From NCBI GenBank assembly GCA_964619785.1, contig CAZUGH010000002.1, positions 11,355-75,354 on the forward strand: 64,000 nucleotides of DNA, written 5' to 3'. The position numbers and the translations under genes are program-made. The notes beneath the pieces are model-generated. The model saw nothing but the letters and a program-made list of their open reading frames with translations, was not told where the DNA came from and did no database searches. Of the stretch, positions 38,860 through 52,907 are shown in pieces (positions within the stretch are counted from its first letter, which is position 1; each line of letters opens with the position of its first letter). Origin of the DNA: an uncultured Lachnospiraceae bacterium. GTDB lineage: Bacteria; Bacillota; Clostridia; Lachnospirales; Lachnospiraceae.

Positions 38860-39318
38860 ATGGTGAAGAGATTTAAGGTATTAGTCAAGGGAATTGTTCA
38901 ACATGAGAATCAGTTTCTAGTGGTCGAACGCTGGTATGATGATCGCATTTTTGACCCATATCAGTGGGAATTTGTTGATGGTGAATTAGAATTTGGAGAG
39001 GTGCCGGATAAGGCAGTTCTTCGAGTAATTCAAGAAAAGACCGGACTTACCGTAGCAATCGATGACATACTCTATACATGGGGATTCACCGCTGGAGAGA
39101 TTTGTACGTTAGGCATTGCATATCAATGCGTGTCGGCGACGGATGAAGTGACTCTAGCGGAGGATTACCGTGATTATAAATGGGTCACGCGTGATGAGAT
39201 GAGTGACTATATTACGAATAAAGCAGTGCTTGAAGATATTGACCGAGCAGGATTGACAAGAGATTTTGATCTCGAAGATTTTGGAAAGGTGGATATTTTT
39301 ATTGAACATTTGGATTAA
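38860..39318 (+). CDS. NUDIX-family hydrolase (Nudix box partly degenerate)
   Basis: The sequence is GELEFGEVPDKAVLRVIQEKTGL, against the consensus GX5EX7REUXEEXGU. Confidence 0.7.
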   Translation: MVKRFKVLVKGIVQHENQFLVVERWYDDRIFDPYQWEFVDGELEFGEVPDKAVLRVIQEKTGLTVAIDDILYTWGFTAGEICTLGIAYQCVSATDEVTLAEDYRDYKWVTRDEMSDYITNKAVLEDIDRAGLTRDFDLEDFGKVDIFIEHLD

Positions 39319-40606
39319 AAATGGACATTTACTGGACCCAGGAACCAACCGTGATGGTATGTTTGACATCTTTATTAAAGATGGCAAAGTAGCAGCTGTT
39401 GGTTCTTTTCCAAGTAAATACGTAAGTGAAGAAGAATTACAGGAAAGTCAGCAAGTAGATGCTACAGGCAAATATGTTATGCCAGGCTTCATTGATTTGC
39501 ATGTACATTATCGTGAACCAGGGTTTGAGTACAAGGAGACGATTGCCACAGGAACAAAAGCAGCAGTTCGTGGAGGGTTTACAGGGACATGCCCGATGCC
39601 AAATACTAAGCCTAGTACAGATTGTCCACAGATGATTGATAAGGTTCTTACGATTGCTAGTCGCGAAGGTCTCTGTAAAGTGTATCCAGTCGGTGCCGTA
39701 ACAATCGGTCAGATGGGTCAAGAGATGACGGATATTGAAGGTATGGTTCACGCGGGTGCCAAGGCAATTAGTGAGGATGGTAAGTCAGTTATGGATGCTG
39801 GTCTATATCGACGCGCGATGGAAGAAGCAGCTCGAATGGATATTCCGGTTATGGCTCACTGTGAGGATAAAAACCTTGTTGGAAAAGGTGCTCTAAACGC
39901 AGGAGATAAAGCACAGGAACTTGGTGTTGCAGGGATTACCAATGCGGTTGAAGATGTCATCGTTGCGCGTGATATTTTATTAGCAAAAGAGACTGGTGCT
40001 AGACTTCACCTTTGTCACTGCTCAACGAAAGATAGCGTTGAGATGATTCGTCTTGCCAAGGCAGAAGGTGTGTGTGTAAGCGGTGAAGTATGTCCACATC
40101 ATTTTGCTATGACAGAACAAGACATCCCTGGGGATGATGCCAACTATAAGATGAATCCACCACTGAGAAGCGCAGCGGATGTTCAGGCGTTGAAGGAAGG
40201 CCTACGCGATGGTGTGATGGATGTGATTTCAACGGACCATGCACCACACAGCGAGGAAGAAAAGCAAAGACCAATTGCGGAAGCGCCATTTGGTATTGTT
40301 GGTTTAGAGACTGCATTTTGTCTGACGGTGACACATCTTGTATTAGAGGGCTATTTGACACCGATGCAGATGGTTGAGAAGATGAGTACCAATCCAGCTA
40401 GAATTCTCGGTGTAGAAGGTGGAACTCTTCGAGAGGGGTCAGTAGCAGATTTGGTAATTGCGGACATGAATGAGAGATATCAGATTAATCCAAATGAGTT
40501 TGTTTCAAAGGGAAAAAACACACCATTTTCTGGACATGAAGCCGTAGGACGAGTTGAGAAGACGATGGTGAATGGACAGTTTGTCTATGAAATGGAGACA
40601 GTATAA
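39302..40606 (+). CDS. pyrC: Dihydroorotase
   Basis: DLHVHYREPG (HxH), AISEDG, HLCH, STDHAPH. TTG 39302 follows GGAAAGGTGGA. The listed ATG 39266 would overlap the NUDIX gene by 53 nt. Confidence 0.9.
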   Translation: MNIWIKNGHLLDPGTNRDGMFDIFIKDGKVAAVGSFPSKYVSEEELQESQQVDATGKYVMPGFIDLHVHYREPGFEYKETIATGTKAAVRGGFTGTCPMPNTKPSTDCPQMIDKVLTIASREGLCKVYPVGAVTIGQMGQEMTDIEGMVHAGAKAISEDGKSVMDAGLYRRAMEEAARMDIPVMAHCEDKNLVGKGALNAGDKAQELGVAGITNAVEDVIVARDILLAKETGARLHLCHCSTKDSVEMIRLAKAEGVCVSGEVCPHHFAMTEQDIPGDDANYKMNPPLRSAADVQALKEGLRDGVMDVISTDHAPHSEEEKQRPIAEAPFGIVGLETAFCLTVTHLVLEGYLTPMQMVEKMSTNPARILGVEGGTLREGSVADLVIADMNERYQINPNEFVSKGKNTPFSGHEAVGRVEKTMVNGQFVYEMETV

Positions 40607-40631
40607 GAGCATACCAGAAAAGGAGATCAAG

Positions 40632-41549
40632 ATGATTAATAAATTAGTAGAGAAAATCAAGAAGTTAGAGGCACCTATTGTTGTTGGACTAGATCCAATG
40701 TTGAGTTATGTCCCAGACTACATTTTAAATAAGGCAATTGAAGAAAAGGGCGAATCATTAGAAGCTGCTGCAGAAGCAATCTGGCAGTTTAATAAGGGAA
40801 TCGTTGATGCCACTTGTGATTTGATTCCAGCTGTGAAACCGCAGATTGCGATGTATGAGCAGTTTGGTGTTCCTGGAATGATGGCGTTTAAGAAGACAGT
40901 AGATTATTGCCATGAGAAAGATTTAGTCGTTATCGGAGATGTGAAACGTGGCGATATCGGTTCGACATCTACAGCCTATGCGGTTGGACATTTAGGACAG
41001 GTTCAAGTAGGAAGTAAGAAGTTTTACGGTTTCGATGAAGACTTCGCTACGGTTAATCCATACCTAGGCTCTGATGGTGTGAAACCATTTATTGAAGTAT
41101 GTAGGGAGGAAAACAAGGGATTATTTATTTTGGTGAAAACTTCCAATCCATCGAGCGGTGAATTCCAGGATCAAGAGATGAATGGACGTGCACTATATGA
41201 AGTTGTAGGTGAACGTGTCGCTGAATGGGGAACCACTCATATGGGGGATTCATATAGTTACATAGGAGCTGTGGTAGGAGCCACATATCCTGAACAAGCA
41301 AGGGTTCTTCGGTCAATTATGCCAAAAACTTATATACTAGTGCCTGGTTATGGTGCACAGGGTGGAACAGCGAAAGATCTGAAACCATTTTTCAATGAAG
41401 ATGGACTTGGTGCAATTGTTAATTCTTCTCGTGGTATTATCGCAGCTTATAAACAGGATAAGTATAGTAAGTTTGGACCTGAGAATTATGCAGATGCTTC
41501 ACGTCAGGCAGTGCTTGATATGAAGGCAGACATTCAAACTATTTTTTAG
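40632..41549 (+). CDS. pyrF: Orotidine 5-prime-phosphate decarboxylase (long type 2)
   Basis: VVGLDP, GDVKRGDIGST. ATG 40632 follows AAAGGAGA. Confidence 0.9.
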   Translation: MINKLVEKIKKLEAPIVVGLDPMLSYVPDYILNKAIEEKGESLEAAAEAIWQFNKGIVDATCDLIPAVKPQIAMYEQFGVPGMMAFKKTVDYCHEKDLVVIGDVKRGDIGSTSTAYAVGHLGQVQVGSKKFYGFDEDFATVNPYLGSDGVKPFIEVCREENKGLFILVKTSNPSSGEFQDQEMNGRALYEVVGERVAEWGTTHMGDSYSYIGAVVGATYPEQARVLRSIMPKTYILVPGYGAQGGTAKDLKPFFNEDGLGAIVNSSRGIIAAYKQDKYSKFGPENYADASRQAVLDMKADIQTIF

Positions 41550-41564
41550 AAAGCGAGAGTAGAG

Positions 41565-42482
41565 ATGAAAAAGAGAATTAGTGCAGTTGTATTAGTATTA
41601 GCAATGGTTGTATCCTGTATGACAGGATGTGGAAAAAAGGATGCATTACAGGCAGCAGTTGAAACCGCACAGAGTGCGAAGAACATGGATGCCACACTAA
41701 AGATGGATATGTCAATGAAGATGAGTGTCGCTGGTCAAGAACAGACGTTAGATATGAATATGGATGGCGATATGACAATTTTCACGGACCCACTAAAATA
41801 CAAAATGAATATGTCGATGAAGATGGCAGGACAAGATACAAAGATGGAAAGTTATATGGCAAAAGAAGGCGAAAACTATATGACTTATACCAATTCTGGT
41901 ACGACATGGAGCAAGGTAAAAGTTGCTAGTGCAGATGAGATGGATAAGGTAAAAGCACAGAGTGATGCTTACAATGTTGCAAGTTTTGTTAAGAATAAAG
42001 AAGACTTGAAACCAGGTGAAGATGCTACTGAGAACGATAAGACTTATAAAACTTATACAGCAGTGATGACGAAAGAAATGATGAAAGAAGCAATGGAGAG
42101 TTCAATGGGAAATTCATTGGACAGCTTAAGTTCTCTGACAGGCGGTAAGCTTGACAAAGATAAATTAGATAGCATTCTTGATAGTATAAAAGATGTTACC
42201 TACACAATTTGGGTCGATGAAGAAGAAGCTGTTATCTATCGTGTGAAGTATTCTATGGCAGAGATGATGGATTCCTTGATGAGCCAGTTATTTGCATCAA
42301 TGGCATCTGGTTCTGATGCGGATGGTATGACAGCCGAGCAAAAGAAAGTAATGAAGAGCCTAAAGATTGAGATTGGTAAATGTGATATTGATATCGTTTA
42401 CAAGAACTACAATGAAGCAACTGATTTTGAAATTCCAGCAGAAGCACTTGCTGCTAAAGAGACTACTTCAGCAACAGAGTAA
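41565..42482 (+). CDS. Met-rich lipoprotein of unknown function (LolA/LppX-like size class)
   Basis: Signal peptide with lipobox VSCMTG-C. About 10 percent Met, with clustered MxM motifs. Confidence 0.7.
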   Translation: MKKRISAVVLVLAMVVSCMTGCGKKDALQAAVETAQSAKNMDATLKMDMSMKMSVAGQEQTLDMNMDGDMTIFTDPLKYKMNMSMKMAGQDTKMESYMAKEGENYMTYTNSGTTWSKVKVASADEMDKVKAQSDAYNVASFVKNKEDLKPGEDATENDKTYKTYTAVMTKEMMKEAMESSMGNSLDSLSSLTGGKLDKDKLDSILDSIKDVTYTIWVDEEEAVIYRVKYSMAEMMDSLMSQLFASMASGSDADGMTAEQKKVMKSLKIEIGKCDIDIVYKNYNEATDFEIPAEALAAKETTSATE

Positions 42483-42508
42483 TATTTTCCTAGAGAGGAT
42501 GAATCACC

Positions 42509-43276
42509 ATGGCGAAAAAACAAATGATGGCGCATATCACAGCGATGACAAAAGTGACAACAGATATTTATAGTATGTGGCTCCGTGTCGAGGGTATCGC
42601 TTCTGAAGCAGTACCAGGACAGTTTATTTCCCTGTATTGCAACAATGAAGATCGATTGTTACCGAGACCAATTAGTATCTGTGAGATTAATCGTGAAGAA
42701 GAATTATTACGACTTGTTTTTCGAGTTGTTGGTAAGGGAACAGAGGAATTCTCACATTTACAACCAGGAGACACAATCAAGGTGCTAGGACCACTTGGCA
42801 ATGGTTTTCCATTGCAAGAGGGTAAGGCAATCCTGATTGGTGGCGGAATTGGAATTCCACCTATGTTACAGCTTGCTAAGGAATTGCCAGGCGACGTAAC
42901 CGTGGTGCTTGGCTATCGTGATGATGATTTGTTTTTAAAAGAGGATTTTGAACCTTATGCTAACGTTGTTATCTCTACTGAAGATGGCAGCGTTGGTACA
43001 AAGGGTAATGTTATTGATGCAATTCAAGAAGAAAAGCTCGAAGGATCCGTGGTCTACTCCTGTGGTCCAACACCAATGCTACGTGGTGTGAAGGCATATG
43101 GAGAGAAAAATGGCATACCGACTTATCTATCTATGGAAGAGAAGATGGCTTGTGGAATTGGGGCATGTCTTGCCTGTACTTGCCAGTCTACAGATGTAGA
43201 TGACCATTCTAAGGTCCATAATAAGAGAATCTGTAAAGATGGCCCAGTATTTTTATCTACGGAGGTGACACTATGA
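42509..43276 (+). CDS. pyrK: Dihydroorotate dehydrogenase B electron-transfer subunit
   Basis: RPISI FAD motif, GGGIGIPP, C-terminal 2Fe-2S Cys cluster CGIGACLACTC. Confidence 0.9.
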   Translation: MAKKQMMAHITAMTKVTTDIYSMWLRVEGIASEAVPGQFISLYCNNEDRLLPRPISICEINREEELLRLVFRVVGKGTEEFSHLQPGDTIKVLGPLGNGFPLQEGKAILIGGGIGIPPMLQLAKELPGDVTVVLGYRDDDLFLKEDFEPYANVVISTEDGSVGTKGNVIDAIQEEKLEGSVVYSCGPTPMLRGVKAYGEKNGIPTYLSMEEKMACGIGACLACTCQSTDVDDHSKVHNKRICKDGPVFLSTEVTL

Positions 43277-44181
43277 GTAAACTTTTGCAGACAGAATTTG
43301 CTGGTGTGAGTTTTGATAATCCGGTAACGACAGCTTCGGGCACATTTGGCTCAGGGCTTGAGTATGAAGATTTTGTTGATTTGACAAAATTAGGTGCTGT
43401 AACTACCAAGGGTGTTGCAAATGTACCATGGCCAGGTAATAAAACGCCACGAATTGCAGAGACACACAGTGGAATGCTCAATGCGATTGGATTGCAAAAC
43501 CCAGGTATTGATACCTTTATTCACCGTGATTTGGCTTACTTGAATCAGATTGGTGCCAGAGTGATTGTGAATGTGTGTGGTCATTCTACGGAGGAGTACC
43601 TTGAGGTGGTAGAACGGCTGGCAGAAGAGAAAGTGGATTTACTTGAAATCAATATCTCATGCCCGAATGTAAAAGAAGGCGGCATTGCCTTTGGACAAAA
43701 GCCAGAGATGGCAGAGGAGATTACGAAAGCTGTGAAAAAGGTTGCGAAGCAGCCAATCATTATGAAGCTCAGTCCGAATGTGACAGATATTACCGAGATG
43801 GCCAAAGCAGTTGAAGCTGGTGGTGCAGATGCGGTATCGTTAATTAACACATTGACCGGTATGAAGATTGATGTGAAACGACGTGCTTTTGCGATTGCTA
43901 ACCAAACAGGTGGTATGAGTGGACCTTGCGTGAGACCAGTTGCAATACGAATGGTTTATCAGGTCGCACAGGCTGTACAGATTCCAATCCTTGGTATGGG
44001 TGGCATTGAGAATACAGAAGATGCATTGGAATTTATGATGGCAGGTGCATCGATGGTTGCCGTAGGAACAGCCAATTTCTTTAATCCGATGGCAACAAGT
44101 GAGATTATCGATGGCTTAGAAGAGTATGCAAAACAAGAGAAACTTACTAATATACATGACATTGTTGGTTGTGTGAGATAA
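43273..44181 (+). CDS. pyrD: Dihydroorotate dehydrogenase B catalytic subunit (class 1B)
   Basis: NISCPNV active-site Cys, GLQNPG, GGMSG, GGI. 4-nt overlap with pyrK. Confidence 0.93.
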   Translation: MSKLLQTEFAGVSFDNPVTTASGTFGSGLEYEDFVDLTKLGAVTTKGVANVPWPGNKTPRIAETHSGMLNAIGLQNPGIDTFIHRDLAYLNQIGARVIVNVCGHSTEEYLEVVERLAEEKVDLLEINISCPNVKEGGIAFGQKPEMAEEITKAVKKVAKQPIIMKLSPNVTDITEMAKAVEAGGADAVSLINTLTGMKIDVKRRAFAIANQTGGMSGPCVRPVAIRMVYQVAQAVQIPILGMGGIENTEDALEFMMAGASMVAVGTANFFNPMATSEIIDGLEEYAKQEKLTNIHDIVGCVR

Positions 44182-44202
44182 GAAAACAGGGGGAATGAAT
44201 TT

Positions 44203-44877
44203 ATGGAGAGTTATAAGCAGGAATTTATCGAGTTTATGGTAGATTCAAAAGTTTTGAAGTTTGGTGATTTTACATTAAAGAGTGGTAGAAAATCTCCATT
44301 TTTTATGAATGCTGGTTTATATGTGACAGGTGCACAGCTTCGTAAGCTAGGTGCATATTATGCCAAAGCAATCTATAACAAATACGGTGATGATTTTGAT
44401 GTGTTATTTGGACCTGCCTATAAAGGTATTCCGCTGAGTGTCGCAACAACAATGGCATTTGATGAATTATATGGTAAGGAAATTCGTTACTGTTCGAATC
44501 GTAAAGAGGTAAAAGATCATGGTGATACCGGTATTTTATTAGGTAGTCCAATCTATGATGGCGATAAGGTTGTTGTAATCGAGGATGTAACTACTTCCGG
44601 CAAGTCAATGGAAGAGACGATTCCTATTGTGCGTGCCCAGGCAGATGTTGAGATTGTTGGCTTGATGGTTTCTTTAAATCGTATGGAACGAGGCAAAGGT
44701 AATCAAGGCGCGCTAGATGAAATTAAGGATCTTTATGGATTCGAGACCAATGCGATTGTAAGTATGGCTGAGGTAGTTGAGCATCTTTATAACAAGCCTT
44801 ATAAAGGACAGGTTATTATTGATGATGAGCTAAAGAATCGCATTGATGCTTATTATAATGAGTATGGTGTGAAATAA
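44203..44877 (+). CDS. pyrE: Orotate phosphoribosyltransferase
   Basis: PRPP motif VVVIEDVTTSGKS, GPAYKGIPL. Confidence 0.93.
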   Translation: MESYKQEFIEFMVDSKVLKFGDFTLKSGRKSPFFMNAGLYVTGAQLRKLGAYYAKAIYNKYGDDFDVLFGPAYKGIPLSVATTMAFDELYGKEIRYCSNRKEVKDHGDTGILLGSPIYDGDKVVVIEDVTTSGKSMEETIPIVRAQADVEIVGLMVSLNRMERGKGNQGALDEIKDLYGFETNAIVSMAEVVEHLYNKPYKGQVIIDDELKNRIDAYYNEYGVK

Positions 44878-45050: not shown

Positions 45051-45836
45051 ATGAAGATAGCCTTTTGGAGTAATTCAAGAGGAAGGAATGGGGTTACTAG
45101 CAATTTGGTGTGTATTAGTGTTTTGCTTGGTCTGCTTAAGCAGCAGAGGGCAGTATTACTTGAGAATCATTGTCATATGAATAATTTGGCTAGTGCATTT
45201 TCGGCACAATTAGAAGCTAGAGAACTATTATGTGAAACAAGTCCACTGATTGGAAAGGATGAGTGGAATCATATTCTACAAGTGGTTGGTCGAGGCTCTC
45301 TCGGACAGTCTACCATTTCTTTACTTGAAAACAATCTATTATATATCCCAGGGACTAGGAGCCTTCAGGAAGAGACCATATCAGAATGGATGCAGAAGCG
45401 GTTAGTATCCGTATTGTCTTTGATGGAGGAGTATGTAGAGAAGATATATATTGATACGGCATCAAGTCACTATGAGAGTTCTCAGATTATCTTACAAGAA
45501 GCAGATTGTGTTGTTGTGAACTTGTCTCAGAACCCACTCGTATTACAACATTTCTTTCGCAATTTTTCACAGGTTCAGAAGAAAGCATTTTATCTAATCG
45601 GCAATTACAGTGCTGATTCTATTTTCACAAAAGAACATATATGCCATAAGTATGGTATTTCAAAAAATCAACTTGGGGTTATCCCCTATCATGTACCATT
45701 CTCAGACTCGCTGGCAGAGGGCCGGCTGATTTCTTTCCTACAGGACAACTTGTATTGTAGGGAAACCAATGTAAATTATAACTTTATTCAGGAGGTTGTC
45801 GAGACTGCACAGAAGTTTCAATGTAGCTTAAATTAA
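45051..45836 (+). CDS. ParA/MinD-fold protein with degenerate P-loop (TadZ/CpaE-like, no receiver domain)
   Basis: MinD-like order of elements: KIAFWSN-SRGRNGVTS (in place of KGGVGKTT), VLLEN, IYIDTAS, ADCVVVNLSQNP, YLIGNY, LGVIPY..S..EG. The Walker A Lys is absent. Confidence 0.5.
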   Translation: MKIAFWSNSRGRNGVTSNLVCISVLLGLLKQQRAVLLENHCHMNNLASAFSAQLEARELLCETSPLIGKDEWNHILQVVGRGSLGQSTISLLENNLLYIPGTRSLQEETISEWMQKRLVSVLSLMEEYVEKIYIDTASSHYESSQIILQEADCVVVNLSQNPLVLQHFFRNFSQVQKKAFYLIGNYSADSIFTKEHICHKYGISKNQLGVIPYHVPFSDSLAEGRLISFLQDNLYCRETNVNYNFIQEVVETAQKFQCSLN

Positions 45837-45849
45837 TAGGGAGGTAGCT

Positions 45850-48798
45850 ATGAGAAGAATTCATATAGCTTTTATTTTCGCACTCTTTTTTATTATGCTG
45901 CTGCCCGGGAATCTTGCTAAAGCAGTAGATGTAAATAGTTACTCTTCGTTGAAAAAGGAGTTAGAGAAGAGTGGGAGTGCAACGGTAAATGTTACGGAGA
46001 AGATATTAATTAAGGGTGTTATTCATGTTAGGGGTACGAAGACTCTCAATGGCATGAACAATAATCTAAATCGTGATGCCACAACGGGAAAGCAGTATTA
46101 TGGTGTGTTGTTTCAGGTTGGTAAAGCGGGCGCCTACACAGGTCATCTGACAGTTAAGAATGCTGTAATTAGTGGGAATGGACAAGCAGCTTCCATGTCA
46201 GCTGGGGTTGATGGAAGATTGATTCGGGTTGTAGAGCCAGGTTCTTCCTTGGTGTTGACGGATGGTGCTGTTCTTAAGAATAATTTTAATTCGGATCGAA
46301 TAATGGATGGCGGTGGTGGAGTCACGGTACTGAATGGATGCACTGCCGAGATGAGAGGCAGTAGTCAGATTATTTCGAATCGTTCTAAGACAGGTGGTGC
46401 GGCCATTCGTGTCGAAGCCGGAGGTTCGTTTACACTGACAAACGGGTTGATTCAAGGAAACCAAGTGAATCAGTATCAGCTTGATGATATATATGGTGGG
46501 CTTGGAGGTGCCATTCACAATTTTGGTTATGTTGAGATTAAGAAAGGTGAGATTCTTGGGAATGTCGCTAACGGAGATGGTGTCAATGGTGGTCTCGGTG
46601 GTGGAATCTATAATCAAGGTGAACTTGTGATTGCGTCAGGTACGATACAAGGGAATCTGGCATCTTTAGGTGGCGGAGCTATTTATTCAAGTGGAAGTAG
46701 AAGCCTTACGCAAATAAAAGAAGGAAGTATTGTGAAAAATACTTGTGGAGATTGCGGTGGTGGCTTATTTATTAATAATGGTGGACGATTGCTTTTTGAA
46801 GGTGGTGAGATAGGTGGCAACCAGGCAGGAACGGGTGGCGGTGTGTATCTCAGTAAACAAGAGACACGAATGGAGATGAAAGGTGGATGGATTCATGGCA
46901 ATGTAGCAAGTAAGTCAACGAATCTAACAGGTGGTGGCCTTCGTGTCAATGGTGCTACAGCAGAGATTAGTGGTGGTGTGTTTGGAATCAATCGCCAGAA
47001 TAGAAAAAGCGATAATTTATGCCCGAACACAGGAAAACCGAATTATTCAAGTCTGATATATAATAGTGGCATTGTTCGTGCAACTGGTGGCAATCTATAT
47101 AGTAGTGCAGTTGGAGCAAGGGCAATTGTTAATATGGGTGAGATGGAACTAAAATTTAAACGAAATTGTGGTATTCATGGAGAGGGTGAGGTAGCAGTTC
47201 TTAATTATGCAACACTCATGTATGGGTCTATATCAGGTTCAGCACCATTAATTGATGGAAGTTTCAAAATTGGAGTCGAGAATAATCAGCAAATGGTCAT
47301 GAGACAAGGAAATATAAGCGCGAGCATAGATGGAATTAAGAATCATGGTGATCTTGAGATATATGGTGGCGCTTCTCATGGAAGACGCGGTGTCAACGCA
47401 TTGGCTGGTAGTTTGGTACTAGGTGGAAAAGTGACGATTCCATCGATTTATCTTGCGAGTGGTCAGATTGTCCACGTTGCAGGAGGAGTAGATATTAACG
47501 GGGGTTTACTTTGCCCAGACGATTATTATGAGGGTAGAGTACTTGTTCGTTCGGATATCGAAGACGCTGATTTCAACATGAAGCAGTTTCGGTTAGAACC
47601 TAAGAATCCTTATCGCATGCAAAGTGCAGGTAAAAAACTATATATTACGGTTATTCGATATATTGTGGAATTTGATAGTAATGGTGGAAAGGGCTACACA
47701 GATTCGATTGTTTCGATAGCAGGAATGCCAATTACGATGCCAAAGTGTGGATTTACTCGAAATGGCTGTGTATTCCTTGGATGGTCAAAGGTGAGGTTTT
47801 CGAAACCGGTCTTGAGTGAGAAACCAGATTATAAGGAAAAAGAGATTGTACCATCATTAGCAGATGAGAAGACAGTCATAACATTGTATGCTGTATGGGG
47901 GTCTGTTCCTACATTTAAACCAGTATATTCGGATGTGGAATTCTATCAGGGTGAATATGTTGATGAGAAGATTTTAAAGAGTCTTGTAACGGTTTATGAT
48001 GAGCTAGATGGAGATATCAGTCAAAGTGTACGAATTGAAAAGATTATATATCGAGGGGCGATTGCGTATTATCCGATTCATCTTGACACAGCAGCAAAAT
48101 ACATTGGCACAATTCAGATTCATTATAAATGTAAGAATCAAAGTGGAAGAAATACAGACTACTATTTATCGGTAAGATTGAAAGAGAATCAACCGCCTAG
48201 TATAAAAGGAAAAGATCGTTATTACTTTTTGGATGAACTAAAAGAGATGACGATTGATGAGGTGGTAGACGAACTAACTACAACTGTAGAATTTCGGGAT
48301 GACGTAGAATCTAAAGATGAATTAATGAAAGATTATTATATCAATAAGATTGATATTCCGATTGATCGAACAGGAAATCATACAGTATATATTAACGTGC
48401 GAGACCAATATGGACATCGTTTCTATATGAAACCAAATGAAAAGAAGAGGTATGGCTCAGGGAAAACAAGTGATTGTCTCTTTTTATTCCATATCATTGC
48501 TAATACACAAAATCATGATGAGTTCGCTGGGTATGTACGATTTATATCTAGTGCTCATATAGATACGCTTAGTCAATCTTCCAAATGGAGAGGTACTCAA
48601 TTAAGCCAACGAATCAAAACGTATTTTGAGAGAGAAACAGTGGGTGGTAATTGTGCTTCGATTTGGTGTTTTGATAAAACACAGATTGATGCAGTACAAG
48701 CGTTGAATGAAAGTGGTGAGGATCTGTTTGGAGAAGAGGCTAATCTGAATTTTCTCCAACGGTTTCACCCAATAATTCGAAAGGAGGATGAAGAATGA
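45850..48798 (+). CDS. Secreted 982-aa beta-helix / Listeria-Bacteroides repeat / Ig-like multidomain protein (candidate adhesin)
   Basis: Signal peptide ...PGNLAKA-VD. Eight tandem Gly-rich turns (GGxGGAI/GGGIY ... G.I.GN.A). VEFDSNGG...GFTRNGCVFLGWS...TLYAVW repeat. Two D..DGDIS-type Ig-like modules. No LPXTG motif and no C-terminal TM. Confidence 0.7.
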   Translation: MRRIHIAFIFALFFIMLLPGNLAKAVDVNSYSSLKKELEKSGSATVNVTEKILIKGVIHVRGTKTLNGMNNNLNRDATTGKQYYGVLFQVGKAGAYTGHLTVKNAVISGNGQAASMSAGVDGRLIRVVEPGSSLVLTDGAVLKNNFNSDRIMDGGGGVTVLNGCTAEMRGSSQIISNRSKTGGAAIRVEAGGSFTLTNGLIQGNQVNQYQLDDIYGGLGGAIHNFGYVEIKKGEILGNVANGDGVNGGLGGGIYNQGELVIASGTIQGNLASLGGGAIYSSGSRSLTQIKEGSIVKNTCGDCGGGLFINNGGRLLFEGGEIGGNQAGTGGGVYLSKQETRMEMKGGWIHGNVASKSTNLTGGGLRVNGATAEISGGVFGINRQNRKSDNLCPNTGKPNYSSLIYNSGIVRATGGNLYSSAVGARAIVNMGEMELKFKRNCGIHGEGEVAVLNYATLMYGSISGSAPLIDGSFKIGVENNQQMVMRQGNISASIDGIKNHGDLEIYGGASHGRRGVNALAGSLVLGGKVTIPSIYLASGQIVHVAGGVDINGGLLCPDDYYEGRVLVRSDIEDADFNMKQFRLEPKNPYRMQSAGKKLYITVIRYIVEFDSNGGKGYTDSIVSIAGMPITMPKCGFTRNGCVFLGWSKVRFSKPVLSEKPDYKEKEIVPSLADEKTVITLYAVWGSVPTFKPVYSDVEFYQGEYVDEKILKSLVTVYDELDGDISQSVRIEKIIYRGAIAYYPIHLDTAAKYIGTIQIHYKCKNQSGRNTDYYLSVRLKENQPPSIKGKDRYYFLDELKEMTIDEVVDELTTTVEFRDDVESKDELMKDYYINKIDIPIDRTGNHTVYINVRDQYGHRFYMKPNEKKRYGSGKTSDCLFLFHIIANTQNHDEFAGYVRFISSAHIDTLSQSSKWRGTQLSQRIKTYFERETVGGNCASIWCFDKTQIDAVQALNESGEDLFGEEANLNFLQRFHPIIRKEDEE

Positions 48799-48977
48799 CA
48801 GAGTTTCTTCAAGAGTATGGCAAGATTATTGTTGCTGTTCTGGTTATCTTAGCTTTGGTTGCGATTGTTGTATTATTCCGTACACCGATGTCTAATATGT
48901 TTGCCAATCTATTCAACAATTTCTTTTCTTCAGTAGGTTCAAGTGCTGGTTTGCCTGCACCAACCTTTAATCCATAA
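48795..48977 (+). CDS. Flp-like (type IVb/Tad) pilin candidate, leaderless; probable major subunit
   Basis: 60 aa starting MTEFLQEYGKIIVAVLVILALVAIVVLF. AAGGAGGA RBS. The ATG overlaps the upstream stop (ATGA). In-frame TGA 2 codons upstream. Confidence 0.55.
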   Translation: MTEFLQEYGKIIVAVLVILALVAIVVLFRTPMSNMFANLFNNFFSSVGSSAGLPAPTFNP

Positions 48978-48988
48978 GGAATTATTTT

Positions 48989-49016
48989 GCCGGGTGGATT
49001 TACCCATCCGGCCTTT
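48989..49016 (+). terminator. Hairpin after the pilin gene (possible partial terminator/attenuator)
   Basis: GCCGGGTGG-ATTTAC-CCATCCGGC (one G-U) followed by CTTT. Confidence 0.35.
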
Positions 49017-49061
49017 GAAAAAGAATACACAAGTGTGATATACACCTTAGATGGAGGACAT

Positions 49062-50126
49062 ATGAGTGATTTTCATAAAAAGTATTTATTAAATCGGGAA
49101 GATTACGGTTTGCTATATAACTATGTAGTAGATGATAATGTGACAGATATTAATTGGAATGGGAGGCAGCTGTGGATTGATGACTTGAGTAAAGGCAGAT
49201 ATCTGGCACCTGAAGTATTAGAGCCTGTATTTGTTGAGCGGTTATCTACTTTGATTTCGAATGTAGTTAGTGTCCCATATAATCGCATGAGTCCAGTTCT
49301 TGAAGCAGAGACAGAAGAGTTGAGAATTAGTATTGTGCATGGAAGTGTGGCACATTCTGGTGCAACGATTTCATTGCGTAAGATTCCTGCTGTTCGACGA
49401 ATGACGAGTGAGGATATGATTCACTCTGGATATTGCGATAAAGAGGTTCGAAACTTCCTAGTGAATTGCATTCGTGCACACTTTAATATTGCGATATGTG
49501 GCATGCCAGGTGCTGGCAAGACGGAACTTCTCAAGTTCTTGACACAATATATACCGGATACAGAACGAGTGATTACCATTGAAGACACACTAGAAATACA
49601 TTATCAGAAGATTAATCCTAACAAGGATTGTGTAGAGATGAAGGTCGCGGAGCAATTCACCTACACAGATGCAATTAAGGCGTGTCTGCGACAGCTTCCC
49701 AAGTGGATTATTCTATCAGAAGCACGCTCAACAGAGGTACGATATTTATTGGAGTGCTTTAGCACAGGTACATATGGAATGACGACGTTGCATACGGATG
49801 ATGTTCGGAATATCCCGGATCGGATAAAGAACATGGCTGGTGGTGAGATGGATGCCACACGTATTGTGAATGATACATATCGTTTTATTAATGTGGGGAT
49901 TTTAGTGAAAAGTATTGTTGAAAAGGATGGAAGAATTACAAGAAGGATTGAACAGATTGGTGTGTTTGACCGCTTCGGAGCAGATTTGATGCATGTGGTG
50001 AACCAGGTAAAGATGATTGTAGATAATGGAACCATTGTTGGTCGAGATATTGACCATAACATAGAGAGACGATTTCATGAGATGGGGATAGATAATCCGT
50101 TTGTGAGGGAGGGATTTGTTGGATAA
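49062..50126 (+). CDS. CpaF/TadA/VirB11-family type IV filament secretion ATPase
   Basis: Walker A CGMPGAGKTELL, Asp box RVITIEDTLEI, Walker B-like WIILSEARSTE, His box GMTTLHTDD. ATG 49062 is 4 nt after GGAGGA. Confidence 0.85.
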   Translation: MSDFHKKYLLNREDYGLLYNYVVDDNVTDINWNGRQLWIDDLSKGRYLAPEVLEPVFVERLSTLISNVVSVPYNRMSPVLEAETEELRISIVHGSVAHSGATISLRKIPAVRRMTSEDMIHSGYCDKEVRNFLVNCIRAHFNIAICGMPGAGKTELLKFLTQYIPDTERVITIEDTLEIHYQKINPNKDCVEMKVAEQFTYTDAIKACLRQLPKWIILSEARSTEVRYLLECFSTGTYGMTTLHTDDVRNIPDRIKNMAGGEMDATRIVNDTYRFINVGILVKSIVEKDGRITRRIEQIGVFDRFGADLMHVVNQVKMIVDNGTIVGRDIDHNIERRFHEMGIDNPFVREGFVG

Positions 50127-51435
50127 TCAATGGAGAGGTCGAATAATACGCTTTGGCATTACCGTTATTGGTGTATTGTTGGTGATGATGATTTATGAAT
50201 TGTGGTGGTGGTGTGGTCTGGGATTGGGGGTTATAGCTCTTTTTGCTGTACCACGAATGAATTATTATCGTAGAAAATCACGCGAGGAAGAGCAAGTATA
50301 TCACCAGGTGACAACATATATGGAACAACTTCTGTGTTCATATAAGAGAACAGGACAGATATTGCCTTCCTTACAGGATTGTGTGAGTATTTTTCAAGAT
50401 GATGATATGAAACAGACGATACTTAAGACAATACATGTTATGAGGACTGGAGAAGGTGTTGAGGATGGAGATATTACCAAGTCTGCTTTTGAGATTATGG
50501 AGAGAGCATATCCGAGTCGGCGTATGAAGATGATTCATAGCTTTATTTGTCAGGCAGAAGCCACTGGTGGTGAGCGAGAAGATGCATTAGATATTTTGTT
50601 AGAGGAGATTCAGCTTTGGAGACAAAGGACACAACTTTATCAGAAGAAAAAGTCATTTATTCGTATTGATACTATGATTGCCGTGGGACTCTCTGCATTG
50701 ATGTGTTATATCTCAAAGCTTTTGACGCCATCCGAATTGGGTATTCGATTACCTGAAACAATGTTATATCAGATTGCTACATCAGTTGTTTTAGGGGCAT
50801 TTGTAGGCACCATTGTATTGGTGTGGAAGAAGCTTACGGGAAGCTGGTTAGATTCAGATGAGATGGTAACGGAGAAACAAGAGCAGAGTATGGATAAGCA
50901 GTATGATATCTTGAAAGGGCATATTGAGACAAAGTCTAGAATTAAGCACAACTTGGCATTGAGAATTTGTCGACGTGAGGTTGAGAAAATATATCCTTAC
51001 TGGCTTTTATCCGTTACATTACAGATGCAGACAGAGAGTGTTTATTCGGCAATTGAAAAATCCTGTCATTCCATAGCAGGAATTTTTAAACGGGAAGTAG
51101 GAGTGTTATTAGAGGAGATATATCAGGAGCCATCTGCTTTACAACCGTACCTAAATTTTTTTCAGGAGTTATCCATACCAGAGGTACAGACAGGAATGAA
51201 AATACTTTACTCTGTTTGTCAAAACGGTTATGAGGATTCGAGAAGACAGTTGGACTTTTTGATTTCAAACAATAACCAGTGCATGGATCGTAGTCAATCT
51301 CATCATTATGAAAACCAAGTGGCGGGCCTATCAATGCTGAAGCATATGCCAATGATGATTGCATGCGTCAAGTTGTTAGCTGATTTGGTGAATTTGCTAG
51401 CACTTACCATGGGAATGTTTCAACAGATTGTTTGA
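50116..51435 (+). CDS. Polytopic membrane protein, candidate fused TadB/TadC (GspF-like) platform
   Basis: 11-nt overlap with the ATPase gene. Topology is 2 TM, then about 130 aa soluble, 2 TM, about 170 aa soluble, and a C-terminal TM. No sequence motif recognised; call rests on position and architecture. Confidence 0.45.
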   Translation: MLDNQWRGRIIRFGITVIGVLLVMMIYELWWWCGLGLGVIALFAVPRMNYYRRKSREEEQVYHQVTTYMEQLLCSYKRTGQILPSLQDCVSIFQDDDMKQTILKTIHVMRTGEGVEDGDITKSAFEIMERAYPSRRMKMIHSFICQAEATGGEREDALDILLEEIQLWRQRTQLYQKKKSFIRIDTMIAVGLSALMCYISKLLTPSELGIRLPETMLYQIATSVVLGAFVGTIVLVWKKLTGSWLDSDEMVTEKQEQSMDKQYDILKGHIETKSRIKHNLALRICRREVEKIYPYWLLSVTLQMQTESVYSAIEKSCHSIAGIFKREVGVLLEEIYQEPSALQPYLNFFQELSIPEVQTGMKILYSVCQNGYEDSRRQLDFLISNNNQCMDRSQSHHYENQVAGLSMLKHMPMMIACVKLLADLVNLLALTMGMFQQIV

Positions 51436-51463
51436 GCAACAAAATGCTCGGAAATGAGGGAGT

Positions 51464-51574
51464 ATGGAAGAATTTATAGAAGAATATGGTGAAATGTTAA
51501 TTATGACATTGATGGGCTCTGGAATGTTAGCCATTTTTATGGGACTAGCAAAGATGATTGGAGAAATGTTTTGA
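51464..51574 (+). CDS. 36-aa Flp-like mini-pilin candidate (not in the ORF track)
   Basis: Sequence MEEFIEEYGEMLIMTLMGSGMLAIFMGLAKMIGEMF. GAGGGAG RBS. In-frame TGA 3 codons upstream. Confidence 0.5.
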   Translation: MEEFIEEYGEMLIMTLMGSGMLAIFMGLAKMIGEMF

Positions 51575-51589
51575 CAGGGAGGATAGATT

Positions 51590-51739
51590 GTGAGTGAATG
51601 GATTGCAGAGTATGGACGTTTGATTATCATGGCGTTAATTGGAATTTTAATTATGTCGGTCATTATATTTATGTGGCAATATCTGGGATTTTTCATGAAT
51701 GCTTTGGGTGATTCACTGATGGGAGGGAATGCTTTGTGA
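51590..51739 (+). CDS. 49-aa Flp-like pilin candidate (not in the ORF track)
   Basis: GTG start 6 nt after AGGGAGGA. Sequence (M)SEWIAEYGRLIIMALIGILIMSVIIFMWQYLGFFMNALGDSLMGGNAL. The stop overlaps the next start (GTGA). Confidence 0.5.
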   Translation: MSEWIAEYGRLIIMALIGILIMSVIIFMWQYLGFFMNALGDSLMGGNAL

Positions 51740-52188
51740 GTACGTTGATTCGACAATATGGACTTGTTATGATGGCAGTACTGATTGGGATTTTTCTTAT
51801 TTGTGGCGTATATCAAACGTTTCAAAATGAATGGGAGAAGACAGGTGTGATTGCAGATGGTAAACAAATGGAATTCGAGGGAAGGGCATCAACTGGCGGA
51901 GGGTATCCGATACTTAAAACACAAGATTGTCAAGTAAAGGTTGGTGACGTATTGGATGTGAGAGATTTAGCTCATGCCGCTGATGTAGATGGAAAAGATT
52001 TGAGCAAAGAGATTACCTATAAAGAGATTTCAGGTAATCTTCTTGGTAAAGATGGTAAGTCTTACTTGATTGATACGACAAAAGAGGGTGTATCGTGGCT
52101 TCAATTTCAAGTAAAAGGAAAGAGTGGTCTAGTTACTTGTAAGGAAGCTATCGTTATCGTGGATTGGAGGAAGAGTAAACAACTATGA
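51736..52188 (+). CDS. Pilin-like N-terminus fused to an Ig-like domain (candidate minor pilin)
   Basis: (M)STLIRQYGLVMMAVLIGIFLICG N-terminus. The C-terminal part has VGDVLDVRDL..AADVDGKDLSKEITY, resembling the modules in the 982-aa protein. Confidence 0.5.
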   Translation: MSTLIRQYGLVMMAVLIGIFLICGVYQTFQNEWEKTGVIADGKQMEFEGRASTGGGYPILKTQDCQVKVGDVLDVRDLAHAADVDGKDLSKEITYKEISGNLLGKDGKSYLIDTTKEGVSWLQFQVKGKSGLVTCKEAIVIVDWRKSKQL

Positions 52189-52511
52189 GAATGATGATTG
52201 AGCATTTTATTACTTTTTTTCTACTGTTAGTATTTGTTTGGATTGGTGTTATGTATGTCATGCAAAACCTGTCCTATTCTAGTGCAAGACAATACCATAG
52301 TGGAGTTGTTAATCAAATTGAGGATAGCAATTTTTCAGAAGATATCATCGCGGAATGCAAGGATAAGGCAGAAAAGGTTGGATATGATTTAAATATTGAA
52401 CGATATTACAATGGGACTAATCAGGATGCTATGGTGACACTTTCTTTTATTTATGAGATTCCCATACTTCATACACAAAAGACTTATTCAATACAAGGCT
52501 ATGCTAGATAG
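52185..52511 (+). CDS. Pseudopilin-like small protein
   Basis: MRMMIEHFITFFLLLVFVWIGVMYV N-terminus is a degenerate version of the shared motif. ATGA overlap with the upstream gene. Confidence 0.4.
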   Translation: MRMMIEHFITFFLLLVFVWIGVMYVMQNLSYSSARQYHSGVVNQIEDSNFSEDIIAECKDKAEKVGYDLNIERYYNGTNQDAMVTLSFIYEIPILHTQKTYSIQGYAR

Positions 52512-52526
52512 GAATGGAGGAAGTTT

Positions 52527-52907
52527 ATGAAAAGTATAATGATATCATTTATTTGTGTACTTTGCTTACTCTTTACCGTTCAAGCACATTCCGATATAAC
52601 GAGCTACTCGGTTCGAAAGGGAGAACTACAGGATGCACTAGGAGTTGCGATGAGTCAGACAATGAGAGAGTGTATGGTTCAGGGAAGTTATGGCATTGTA
52701 GATGAGAAAACTTTTACAGCAGCATTTTTACGAAGTTTATTGAGTAAAGTGAATTCAGATGGGGAAATAACAGTGAAGATTGTGACGTTAGATATGGAAG
52801 AAGGATTTTTAGATGTGGAAGTGATTCAGAAATATCAAGATTATATCGGTAAAGAGCGAGAACTCAAACTGAGAAGAACTGTGATATTAGAAGAACCGAC
52901 CCTATAA
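52527..52907 (+). CDS. N-terminally anchored or secreted small protein, last gene of the cluster
   Basis: GGAGGA RBS. Hydrophobic N-terminus MKSIMISFICVLCLLFTVQAHS. Preferred over the overlapping ORF 52514-52705. Confidence 0.4.
   Translation: MKSIMISFICVLCLLFTVQAHSDITSYSVRKGELQDALGVAMSQTMRECMVQGSYGIVDEKTFTAAFLRSLLSKVNSDGEITVKIVTLDMEEGFLDVEVIQKYQDYIGKERELKLRRTVILEEPTL

Follow-up and report, generated by a model that had tools for sequence, protein, structure and literature searches.

Small Flp-like proteins with a conserved N-terminal M-x5-EYG motif in a probable Tad-like filament locus of Lachnospiraceae

Can the subunits of a type IV filament do without a cleaved leader? To our knowledge, cleavage of the leader with an A24 prepilin peptidase is regarded as a step that all type IV filaments share and that defines them, in pili and competence pili as well as in archaella and the pseudopili of type II secretion. 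The question is raised by a gene cluster in a 64,000-nucleotide stretch of DNA from an uncultured Lachnospiraceae bacterium (contig CAZUGH010000002.1, positions 11,355 to 75,354 of the forward strand), and this whole stretch is called the window here. A first-pass annotation, made from the letters alone, had described five paralogous pilin-like proteins with an Flp-type EYG motif but neither a leader peptide nor a cleavage-site glycine. The five open reading frames (ORFs), their start codons and their translations were confirmed from the sequence. Four of them, here named pil1 to pil4, share one register and can be regarded as a family, whereas the fifth, at 52185, lacks Y-G and could not be related to pil1 to pil4.

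Small proteins with a common N-terminal motif

The four genes lie on the plus strand within a cluster of ten co-oriented genes (45051-52907), which are packed tightly or overlap. They encode the following products, with lengths in amino acid residues (aa).

48795..48977, plus strand: pil1, 60 aa, candidate major Flp-like subunit, N-terminus MTEFLQEYGKIIVAVLVILALVAIVVLFR...
51464..51574, plus strand: pil2, 36 aa, candidate minor subunit, very acidic, N-terminus MEEFIEEYGEMLIMTLMGSGMLAIFMGL...
51590..51739, plus strand: pil3, 49 aa, candidate minor subunit with a GTG start, N-terminus MSEWIAEYGRLIIMALIGILIMSVIIF...
51736..52188, plus strand: pil4, 150 aa, GTG start in a GTGA overlap with pil3, N-terminus MSTLIRQYG

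All four proteins read M-x5-[E/Q]7-Y8-G9, followed by about 19 hydrophobic residues. In-frame stop codons were found 2-9 codons upstream of the starts (TGA 48789, TGA 51455, TAG 51584 and TGA 51709 for pil1 to pil4, respectively), and each start is preceded by a Shine-Dalgarno site, namely AAAGGAGG for 48795, GAGGGAG for 51464, GGGAGG for 51590 and GGGAGGG for 51736. These positions agree with those given in the first-pass annotation. With 36-60 aa, pil1 to pil3 have the size of Flp/Tad pilins and consist of a helix with no globular domain. The C-terminal part of pil4 is beta-rich and was predicted to form an Ig-like extracellular domain. In an alignment of 22 pil4 orthologues the residues M1, Y8, G9 and P58 were invariant. 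A single-sequence AF2 model of pil4 was poor overall (pLDDT 47) and usable only for the N-terminal helix 2-36, where the pLDDT was 63-85 by block. The pil2 gene and its Shine-Dalgarno site are conserved in related loci, yet pil2 was left uncalled in 3 of the 3 public assemblies that contain the locus (L046-L048).

The conservation of the starts was followed in 38 syntenic loci obtained from a scan of one genome per species. All are from Lachnospiraceae and related metagenome-assembled genomes, with 48-75% identity of the ATPase, and have the same cluster gene order. For each of the four genes the orthologues keep the register of the motif, and this holds even for L036-L038, the loci farthest removed. 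Almost every conserved start is preceded, at a distance of 5-10 nt, by a GGAGG-like site. For the majority of orthologues there is no other in-frame start before the next upstream stop, and the rare extensions of the ORF are not conserved. As judged from these alignments, the start codons of pil1 to pil4 are real and conserved. Since the register recurs in the orthologues of each of the four genes over 38 loci, its sharing by pil1 to pil4 is, at the sequence level, far beyond chance. The first-pass annotation had considered that the starts might be artefacts and that relatives might carry normal leaders with a glycine. This explanation fell away, because neither the family profile matches nor the syntenic loci yielded a relative with a leader of the usual kind that contains a glycine.

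The family extends well beyond these loci. When a profile of pil1 homologues was searched against a library of 1.84 billion proteins, 76 clusters (50% identity) were obtained at E<=1e-3, nearly all of which aligned profile position 1 to residue 1 of the protein, and a second profile search added many more. Among the pooled database proteins, 161 of 175 start precisely at the Met of the motif. The 134 distinct N-termini have M1, F or I at position 4, L, F or I at position 5, E7 in 90% and Q7 in 7%, Y8 in 95% and W8 in the rest, and G9 in 100%. Residue 2 (K/T/Q/E) and residue 3 (E/A/D/S) are variable, and position 10 is occupied by K (30%), L (21%), P (18%, 24/134) or G (8%), among others. Most members are 50-80 aa long, and some carry C-terminal leucine-rich repeat (LRR), Ig-like or Ca-binding-like modules; the LRR and Ig-like modules fit pilins of modular build with the N-terminus inside and the C-terminus outside. 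The clusters of distant members, which keep the gene order as well, contain a ParA, a pilin, a T2SSE ATPase, a membrane protein of 459-507 aa with no Pfam match, small proteins and a giant surface protein. Searches of Pfam and NCBIfam yielded no model for the M-x5-EYG family, and no description of the motif or the family was found in the literature on leaderless pilins, on PF16982/Flp1-like proteins and on peptidase-independent pili.

A probable Tad-like machine and the likeness to Flp pilins

The genes between pil1 and pil2, together with the first gene of the cluster, were analysed for components of a Tad machine.

49062..50126, plus strand: secretion ATPase of the CpaF/TadA/VirB11 class, 354 aa from an ATG with a GGAGG site; the ORF is open from 48987
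50119..51435, plus strand: polytopic membrane protein, 438 aa, putative fused TadB/TadC (PilC/T2SSF)-like platform
45051..45836, plus strand: conserved 261-aa protein, first gene of the cluster, syntenic in L001-L035

The 354-aa start of the ATPase is the one that gene callers use. The protein matched Pfam T2SSE with E=1.4e-25, and its closest solved structures were those of CpaF (8rkd/9e24, E=2e-20), followed by archaeal GspE/FlaI and then by VirB11, as is expected for the CpaF/TadA-type ATPase of a Tad machine.

The 438-aa protein showed no match in Pfam, T2SSF included, or in NCBIfam; a PDB sequence search was empty and all its homologues are annotated as hypothetical. An AF2 model built from 34 homologues was all-helical with a pLDDT of 89.7. 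With this model, Foldseek found in the PDB as top match chain Ca of 3jc8, a model of the type IVa pilus machine (probability 0.99, E=0.023), which is a weak likeness at a TM score of 0.28-0.36; we take this chain to be PilC. In addition, residues 17-164 were aligned by hhalign to the T2SSF domain of a TadB encoded in a tad locus of Alkaliphilus (probability 83%, E=8.7e-6). No match of the C-terminal half to TadC was obtained. We read the protein as a fused TadB/C-like platform, of which the N-terminal half is matched to TadB.

For the 261-aa protein, no Pfam match was found with the copy in the window. Among 15 orthologues there were weak matches to CbiA (ParA) in 4, to BcsQ in 2 and to AAA_31 in 1, the best with E=0.016. 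An hhalign comparison with the true ParA of a related locus aligned the P-loop region only and was not significant, and BLAST and a PDB profile search gave no support for a ParA/TadZ. In one distant locus the place of this gene is taken by a bona fide ParA. From the sequence comparisons, the 261-aa protein is possibly, and at best, a degenerate relative of the ParA/MinD type (TadZ/CpaE-like). Because the pil genes are accompanied by an ATPase of the CpaF/TadA class and by a putative platform of fused TadB/C-like build, we conclude that the cluster is very probably a Tad-like, though divergent, type IV filament locus.

The small proteins themselves were then compared with the Flp pilins, to which the first-pass annotation had related them. 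In pil1, the Flp1_like family (PF16982) was matched at residues 12-46 with 22.0 bits against a cut-off of 33.5, and Flp_Fap (PF04964) with 13.1 bits against 32.2. A sub-threshold match to Flp1_like was seen in 33 of 61 diverse members (best E=2e-8, best score 32.0 bits against 33.5), and a match to Flp_Fap in 3. The Flp1_like matches cover profile positions of about 11-48 in the same register, and the first ten positions were never aligned, so the N-terminal motif appears specific to the M-x5-EYG family. When the family profile was searched against the PDB, positions 7-46 were placed on residues 5-42 of the mature Caulobacter PilA (8u1k, E=0.19) with E7-Y8-G9 on E5-Y6-G7, and the profile was also aligned to a second Flp pilin (8u2b, E=0.85); neither alignment is significant. 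In the Tad pilus structure, the Flp motif has Tyr6 and Gly7 as its conserved residues; Gly7 breaks the helix, and Tyr6 is placed beneath the first residue of the following subunit (PMC10710030). On a homology-based reading, E7-Y8-G9 would thus be the Flp motif E5-Y6-G7 displaced by two residues from the N-terminus. The relation to Flp is therefore supported by the 33 matches, the placing of the motif and the Tad-like machine, but all the scores are below threshold.

The Flp pilins of Tad (type IVc) pili, such as PilA of Caulobacter crescentus and Flp1 of Aggregatibacter, are likewise essentially one long helix, with E-Y-G and about 19 hydrophobic residues, and are accompanied by an adjoining CpaF/TadA ATPase, a TadB/C-like platform and several minor paralogues. 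They differ from pil1 to pil4 in having a leader of 10-25 residues and a canonical glycine at -1, which are missing here. The residues in front of E-Y are hydrophobic in the Flp pilins and polar or charged in the pil proteins, which also have no Thr2.

Leader or retained N-terminus

In a class III signal peptide, a hydrophilic leader has Gly or Ala as its last residue and 20-25 mainly hydrophobic residues come directly after it, with Glu5 often but not always present (PMC10191384). In the pil proteins the position homologous to -1 of the Flp pilins is residue 2, which is K, T, Q or E and not G or A. At this canonical position the claim that a cleavage-site glycine is missing was borne out; elsewhere it was not secured, since the invariant G9 could itself be the -1 glycine. 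The N-terminus could then be a short leader. The sequence MxxFLxEYG would be a 9-residue class III leader, an A24 peptidase of the PilD, ComC or TadV type encoded elsewhere in the genome would cut between G9 and residue 10, and the mature pilin would have about 50 aa and no Glu5, as is the case in many archaeal pilins.

Several observations speak for such a cleavage and weigh against a retained N-terminus. G9 is the only invariant residue (134/134 N-termini, and all the orthologues of pil1, pil3 and pil4) and stands exactly at the junction of hydrophilic and hydrophobic residues, which is the cleavage site of A24 peptidases. The stretch 1-9 is hydrophilic and contains 2-3 charges, whereas the first four residues of mature Flp pilins are hydrophobic, and since 18-21 uncharged residues come after G9, the definition of a class III leader applies (PMC10191384). 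The ending E-x-G resembles that of canonical Flp leaders, which end in [D/E]-E-x-G, for example MMNILKDFIKEEKG|QTMVEW of Alkaliphilus. In addition, all the evidence for a filament and for a retained N-terminus is at the level of sequence.

No A24 gene was found in the cluster, as the first-pass annotation had stated, nor in the whole 64-kb window or in about 50 related loci (about 0.7 Mb), when scanned with the expression GxGDx[K/R] and by tblastn. With an Alkaliphilus A24 protein as the tblastn query, only the positive control was detected among all the sequences scanned. A TadV was accordingly not found in the locus by the A24 search of the window, whereas tadV is present in most Gram-positive tad loci (PMC3244431). 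However, the loci of the MSH pilus all lack a prepilin peptidase and are thought to borrow that of another system (PMC6668835), and peptidases can be shared between systems; the missing gene is therefore weak evidence against a cleaved leader.

The net charge of residues 1-10 was exactly -1 in 69 of 77 unique N-termini (90%). The charged positions shift among residues 2, 3, 6, 7 and 10 with compensating changes that span G9, as seen in MKAFLEEYGL, MTEFLQEYGK, MQDILKEYGP, MEDFIKQWGP and MENFFDQYGK. The variance of the charge was 0.165, while shuffling of the columns gave 1.73 and none of 2000 shuffles went as low. K or R at position 10 occurred together with a net charge of -2 in residues 1-9 in 13/18 cases against 0/43 (Fisher p=1.3e-9). 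These statistics ignore phylogeny; the compensations nonetheless occur in many sequence contexts. The covariation across G9 suggests that the residues on either side of the putative cut behave as one unit. With a net charge of -1 and a free alpha-amine, the decapeptide would be neutral, which is the same rule as for the amine and Glu5 in ordinary mature pilins.

Further features do not suit a cut after G9. Position 10 is Pro in 18% of the variants, which we count as incompatible with cleavage, and Lys in 30%. In a second type of locus, the pil2-like proteins keep the register with A, T, I or S at position 9, and T, I or S are incompatible with cleavage because the class III definition admits only Gly or Ala at -1. 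As a leader the nonapeptide would be net acidic, contrary to the positive-inside rule. Conservation in the protein is highest within this nonapeptide, whose length is fixed, unlike that of most leaders, and the profile alignment prefers EYG on E5-Y6-G7 of Flp. Taken together, the charge rule, the covariation, the residues at positions 9 and 10 and the linkage suggest, with moderate confidence, that the N-terminus of the pil proteins is retained. We regard a short cleaved leader as rather unlikely, although it is the alternative that survives best.

The possibility of a Sec-type signal peptide was looked at because of a resemblance to TraM. The signal peptide of TraM (8cw4 chain 1A) begins with MTTLFKKYGPAVV... 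and has Y8-G9 in the same register, but with E=0.72 this is probably by chance; we take the TraM of 8cw4 to be a VirB2-type pilin of pKM101. The pil proteins have an acidic n-region and no AxA site, and with a likeness at chance level the reading as a Sec signal was rejected.

Possible filament formation and the other components of the locus

The remaining genes of the cluster encode a giant secreted protein and two small proteins, and a hairpin is located behind pil1.

45850..48798, plus strand: giant protein, 982 aa, with an N-terminal Sec-type signal and Gly-rich beta-helix-like repeats
52185..52511, plus strand: bitopic membrane protein, 108 aa, N-terminus MRMMIEHF...
52527..52907, plus strand: bitopic or secreted protein, 126 aa, last gene of the cluster, N-terminus MKSIMISFICVLCLLF...
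48989..49012, plus strand: GC-rich hairpin of 9 bp, GCCGGGUGG...CCAUCCGGC, directly 3' of the pil1 stop, with no U tract

The order of the genes is thus 261-aa, 982-aa, pil1, ATPase, 438-aa, pil2, pil3, pil4, 108-aa, 126-aa. Start and stop codons overlap at several junctions, as ATGA at 982-aa/pil1 and pil4/108-aa and as GTGA at pil3/pil4, and these overlaps suggest translational coupling at the three sites.

We consider the cluster to be best explained as a divergent Tad/Flp-type (type IVc-like) filament system whose leaderless subunits are polymerised with the N-terminus retained, an explanation that we hold with about as much confidence as doubt. Its components would be the CpaF/TadA-class ATPase, the fused TadB/C-like platform, the abundant 60-aa pil1 and the minor pil2 to pil4, together with the two bitopic proteins and the giant Sec-secreted protein that appears translationally coupled to pil1. 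The subunits would be translated from the conserved Met with no canonical prepilin leader, inserted with the N-terminus in and the C-terminus out, and left uncut by an A24 prepilin peptidase. They would then be extracted and stacked by the CpaF-like ATPase and the TadB/C-like platform, and the N-terminal decapeptide would be kept in the polymer. Held at a net charge of -1 and neutral with its free alpha-amine, the decapeptide would be amphipathic, with F4, L5 and Y8 on the hydrophobic face and the pairs K2/E6 or E7/K10 on the other face. pil2 to pil4 may prime or tip the filament, and the 982-aa beta-helix protein would be a candidate for the tip adhesin or a cargo. What the data show directly are the gene content, the conserved starts, the breadth of the family, the register of the motif, the charge rule and that no linked peptidase is present; that a filament forms, the topology of its subunits and their missing processing are what we infer.

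Alternatively, the pil proteins might not build a filament. They would then be uncleaved single-pass components whose acidic tail, in the cytoplasm, docks on the ATPase or the platform, in a Tad-derived machine that exports or anchors the giant protein, in the manner of a short pseudopilus or of a secretion system with no piston. This would agree with the presence of a giant Sec-secreted protein beside the machine in every locus type, with its probable translational coupling to pil1, with a second locus type in which pil1 and pil3 are missing and only a pil2-like and a 143-aa protein are left, and with pil2 being hardly longer than a single transmembrane helix. However, one abundant small subunit with minor ones, of which one has an adhesin-like domain, is the standard layout of a type IV filament; the Flp-like similarity runs beyond the helix, and the family members with LRR or Ig modules resemble modular pilins. 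We therefore think this role improbable.

A trimming of two residues by a protease other than A24, which had been proposed in the first-pass annotation, would give the canonical E5-Y6 end (E7 minus 2 = E5), and in about 25% of the family, those members with T, S, A or G as residue 2, Met1 would be taken off by Met aminopeptidase; the trimming is nevertheless very improbable, as residues 2 and 3 are variable with no conserved cleavage motif, the charge rule includes both, and Pfam and NCBIfam scans showed no protease-like gene in the cluster.

If the N-terminus is indeed retained with its Met1, the cluster would be the first system of the type IV filament superfamily that needs no prepilin peptidase, with Flp-derived leaderless pilins that are widespread in gut Clostridia, a proposal that we put forward tentatively. 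It is conceivable, with similar caution, that the charge-balanced decapeptide (net -1 plus the free amine) replaces in such a system the universal combination of a new N-terminus and Glu5. The unusual part is the N-terminal architecture: leaderless subunits and a fixed acidic 9-residue leader in front of a mature pilin devoid of Glu5 are both uncommon in bacterial type IV filaments. Either reading, if true, would offer a natural test of what the leader, the newly formed N-terminus and Glu5 each contribute when subunits are extracted from the membrane and assembled. The subunits are invisible to motif searches of the PilFind type and to Pfam and NCBIfam, and pil2 is not even called as a gene, so the Tad-like adhesion machines of abundant gut Lachnospiraceae are probably under-counted.

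Similar clusters have been described. The Gram-positive 'no Flp' tad-like loci of clostridia, including Lachnospiraceae (Imam et al. 2011, PMC3244431), resemble the present one: a PilFind motif search detected in them no protein with a prepilin signal, and their tad genes are only distant relatives of other tad genes. They differ in that they are reported to have tadV and rcpC, neither of which is found here, and M-x5-EYG proteins were not described for them. The TANB77 cluster of gut Clostridia (2024, PMC11680825) has ParA-like proteins, a CpaF-like ATPase, a fused TadC/TadB-like platform that is recognisable only structurally and a row of 'pilin-like' proteins with a single transmembrane segment, and no peptidase is given in the protein table of that paper. 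This likeness is by description; TANB77 is another clade, the pilin-like proteins have 143-621 aa, and no analysis of their N-termini for a motif was reported. MSH pili have a filament locus with no prepilin peptidase of its own, as here, but their subunits carry ordinary cleavable leaders and the peptidase presumably comes from another system (PMC6668835).

The giant protein showed a weak Listeria-Bacteroides repeat (Pfam Flg_new, E=1.7e-4), which is below threshold. Its TGA stop (48796-48798) overlaps the ATG of pil1. It could be a tip adhesin, a cargo or a substrate of the machine. Every version of the cluster was seen to encode a giant surface protein secreted by Sec, 600-1800 aa long and in some cases with a weak Flg_new match, for example at 5270-9370 in L042 and at 14487-20003 in L050. 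The second locus type comprises L002, L005, L011, L013, L016-L019, L022 and L024-L035. There the giant protein is shorter (about 600 aa), and a pil2-like protein of 34-39 aa and a pil4-like protein of 143 aa are kept while pil1 and pil3 are missing. The pil2-like protein often has A, T, I or S in place of G9 and ends in GG at the C-terminus.

The start of the 108-aa protein at 52185 has as its sole GGAGG a distant one, 15 nt upstream, and overlaps the preceding gene. The family of this protein has [E/S]-[H/Q]-F at about positions 6-8, an invariant Cys58 and, as its last four residues, an invariant G-Y-[A/S/V]-R. No relation to pil1 to pil4 was detected, nor one to TadE by hhalign, and a PDB search found no solved relative; a TadE was therefore rejected as its identity. 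The gene of the 126-aa protein is syntenic in nearly all loci, and the protein matched no family in Pfam and NCBIfam. Neither of the two proteins matched TadE in Pfam, so the TadE/TadF pseudopilins of a Tad machine were not recognised among them, and neither has a Gly or Ala ahead of its hydrophobic helix (for the 108-aa protein, in the locus type of the window), which we count in favour of a retained N-terminus in the pil proteins.

The hairpin behind pil1 was analysed by folding the region 48970-49065, which gave -25.9 kcal/mol with z=-2.98, and a terminator caller was negative for it. It may act as a stabiliser or attenuator of the transcript that sets the ratio of pilin to machine, raising the level of pil1 over that of the downstream genes.

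The cluster is flanked by chromosomal genes, with pyrimidine biosynthesis upstream and genes for a CNNM/CorC protein and an ABC-F protein downstream. Directly upstream, at 39266-44877, are the genes for dihydroorotase, OMP decarboxylase, two dihydroorotate dehydrogenase subunits and a phosphoribosyltransferase, interrupted by a DUF6612 gene. The pyrimidine genes alongside represent an ordinary chromosomal context, which argues against a mobile element.

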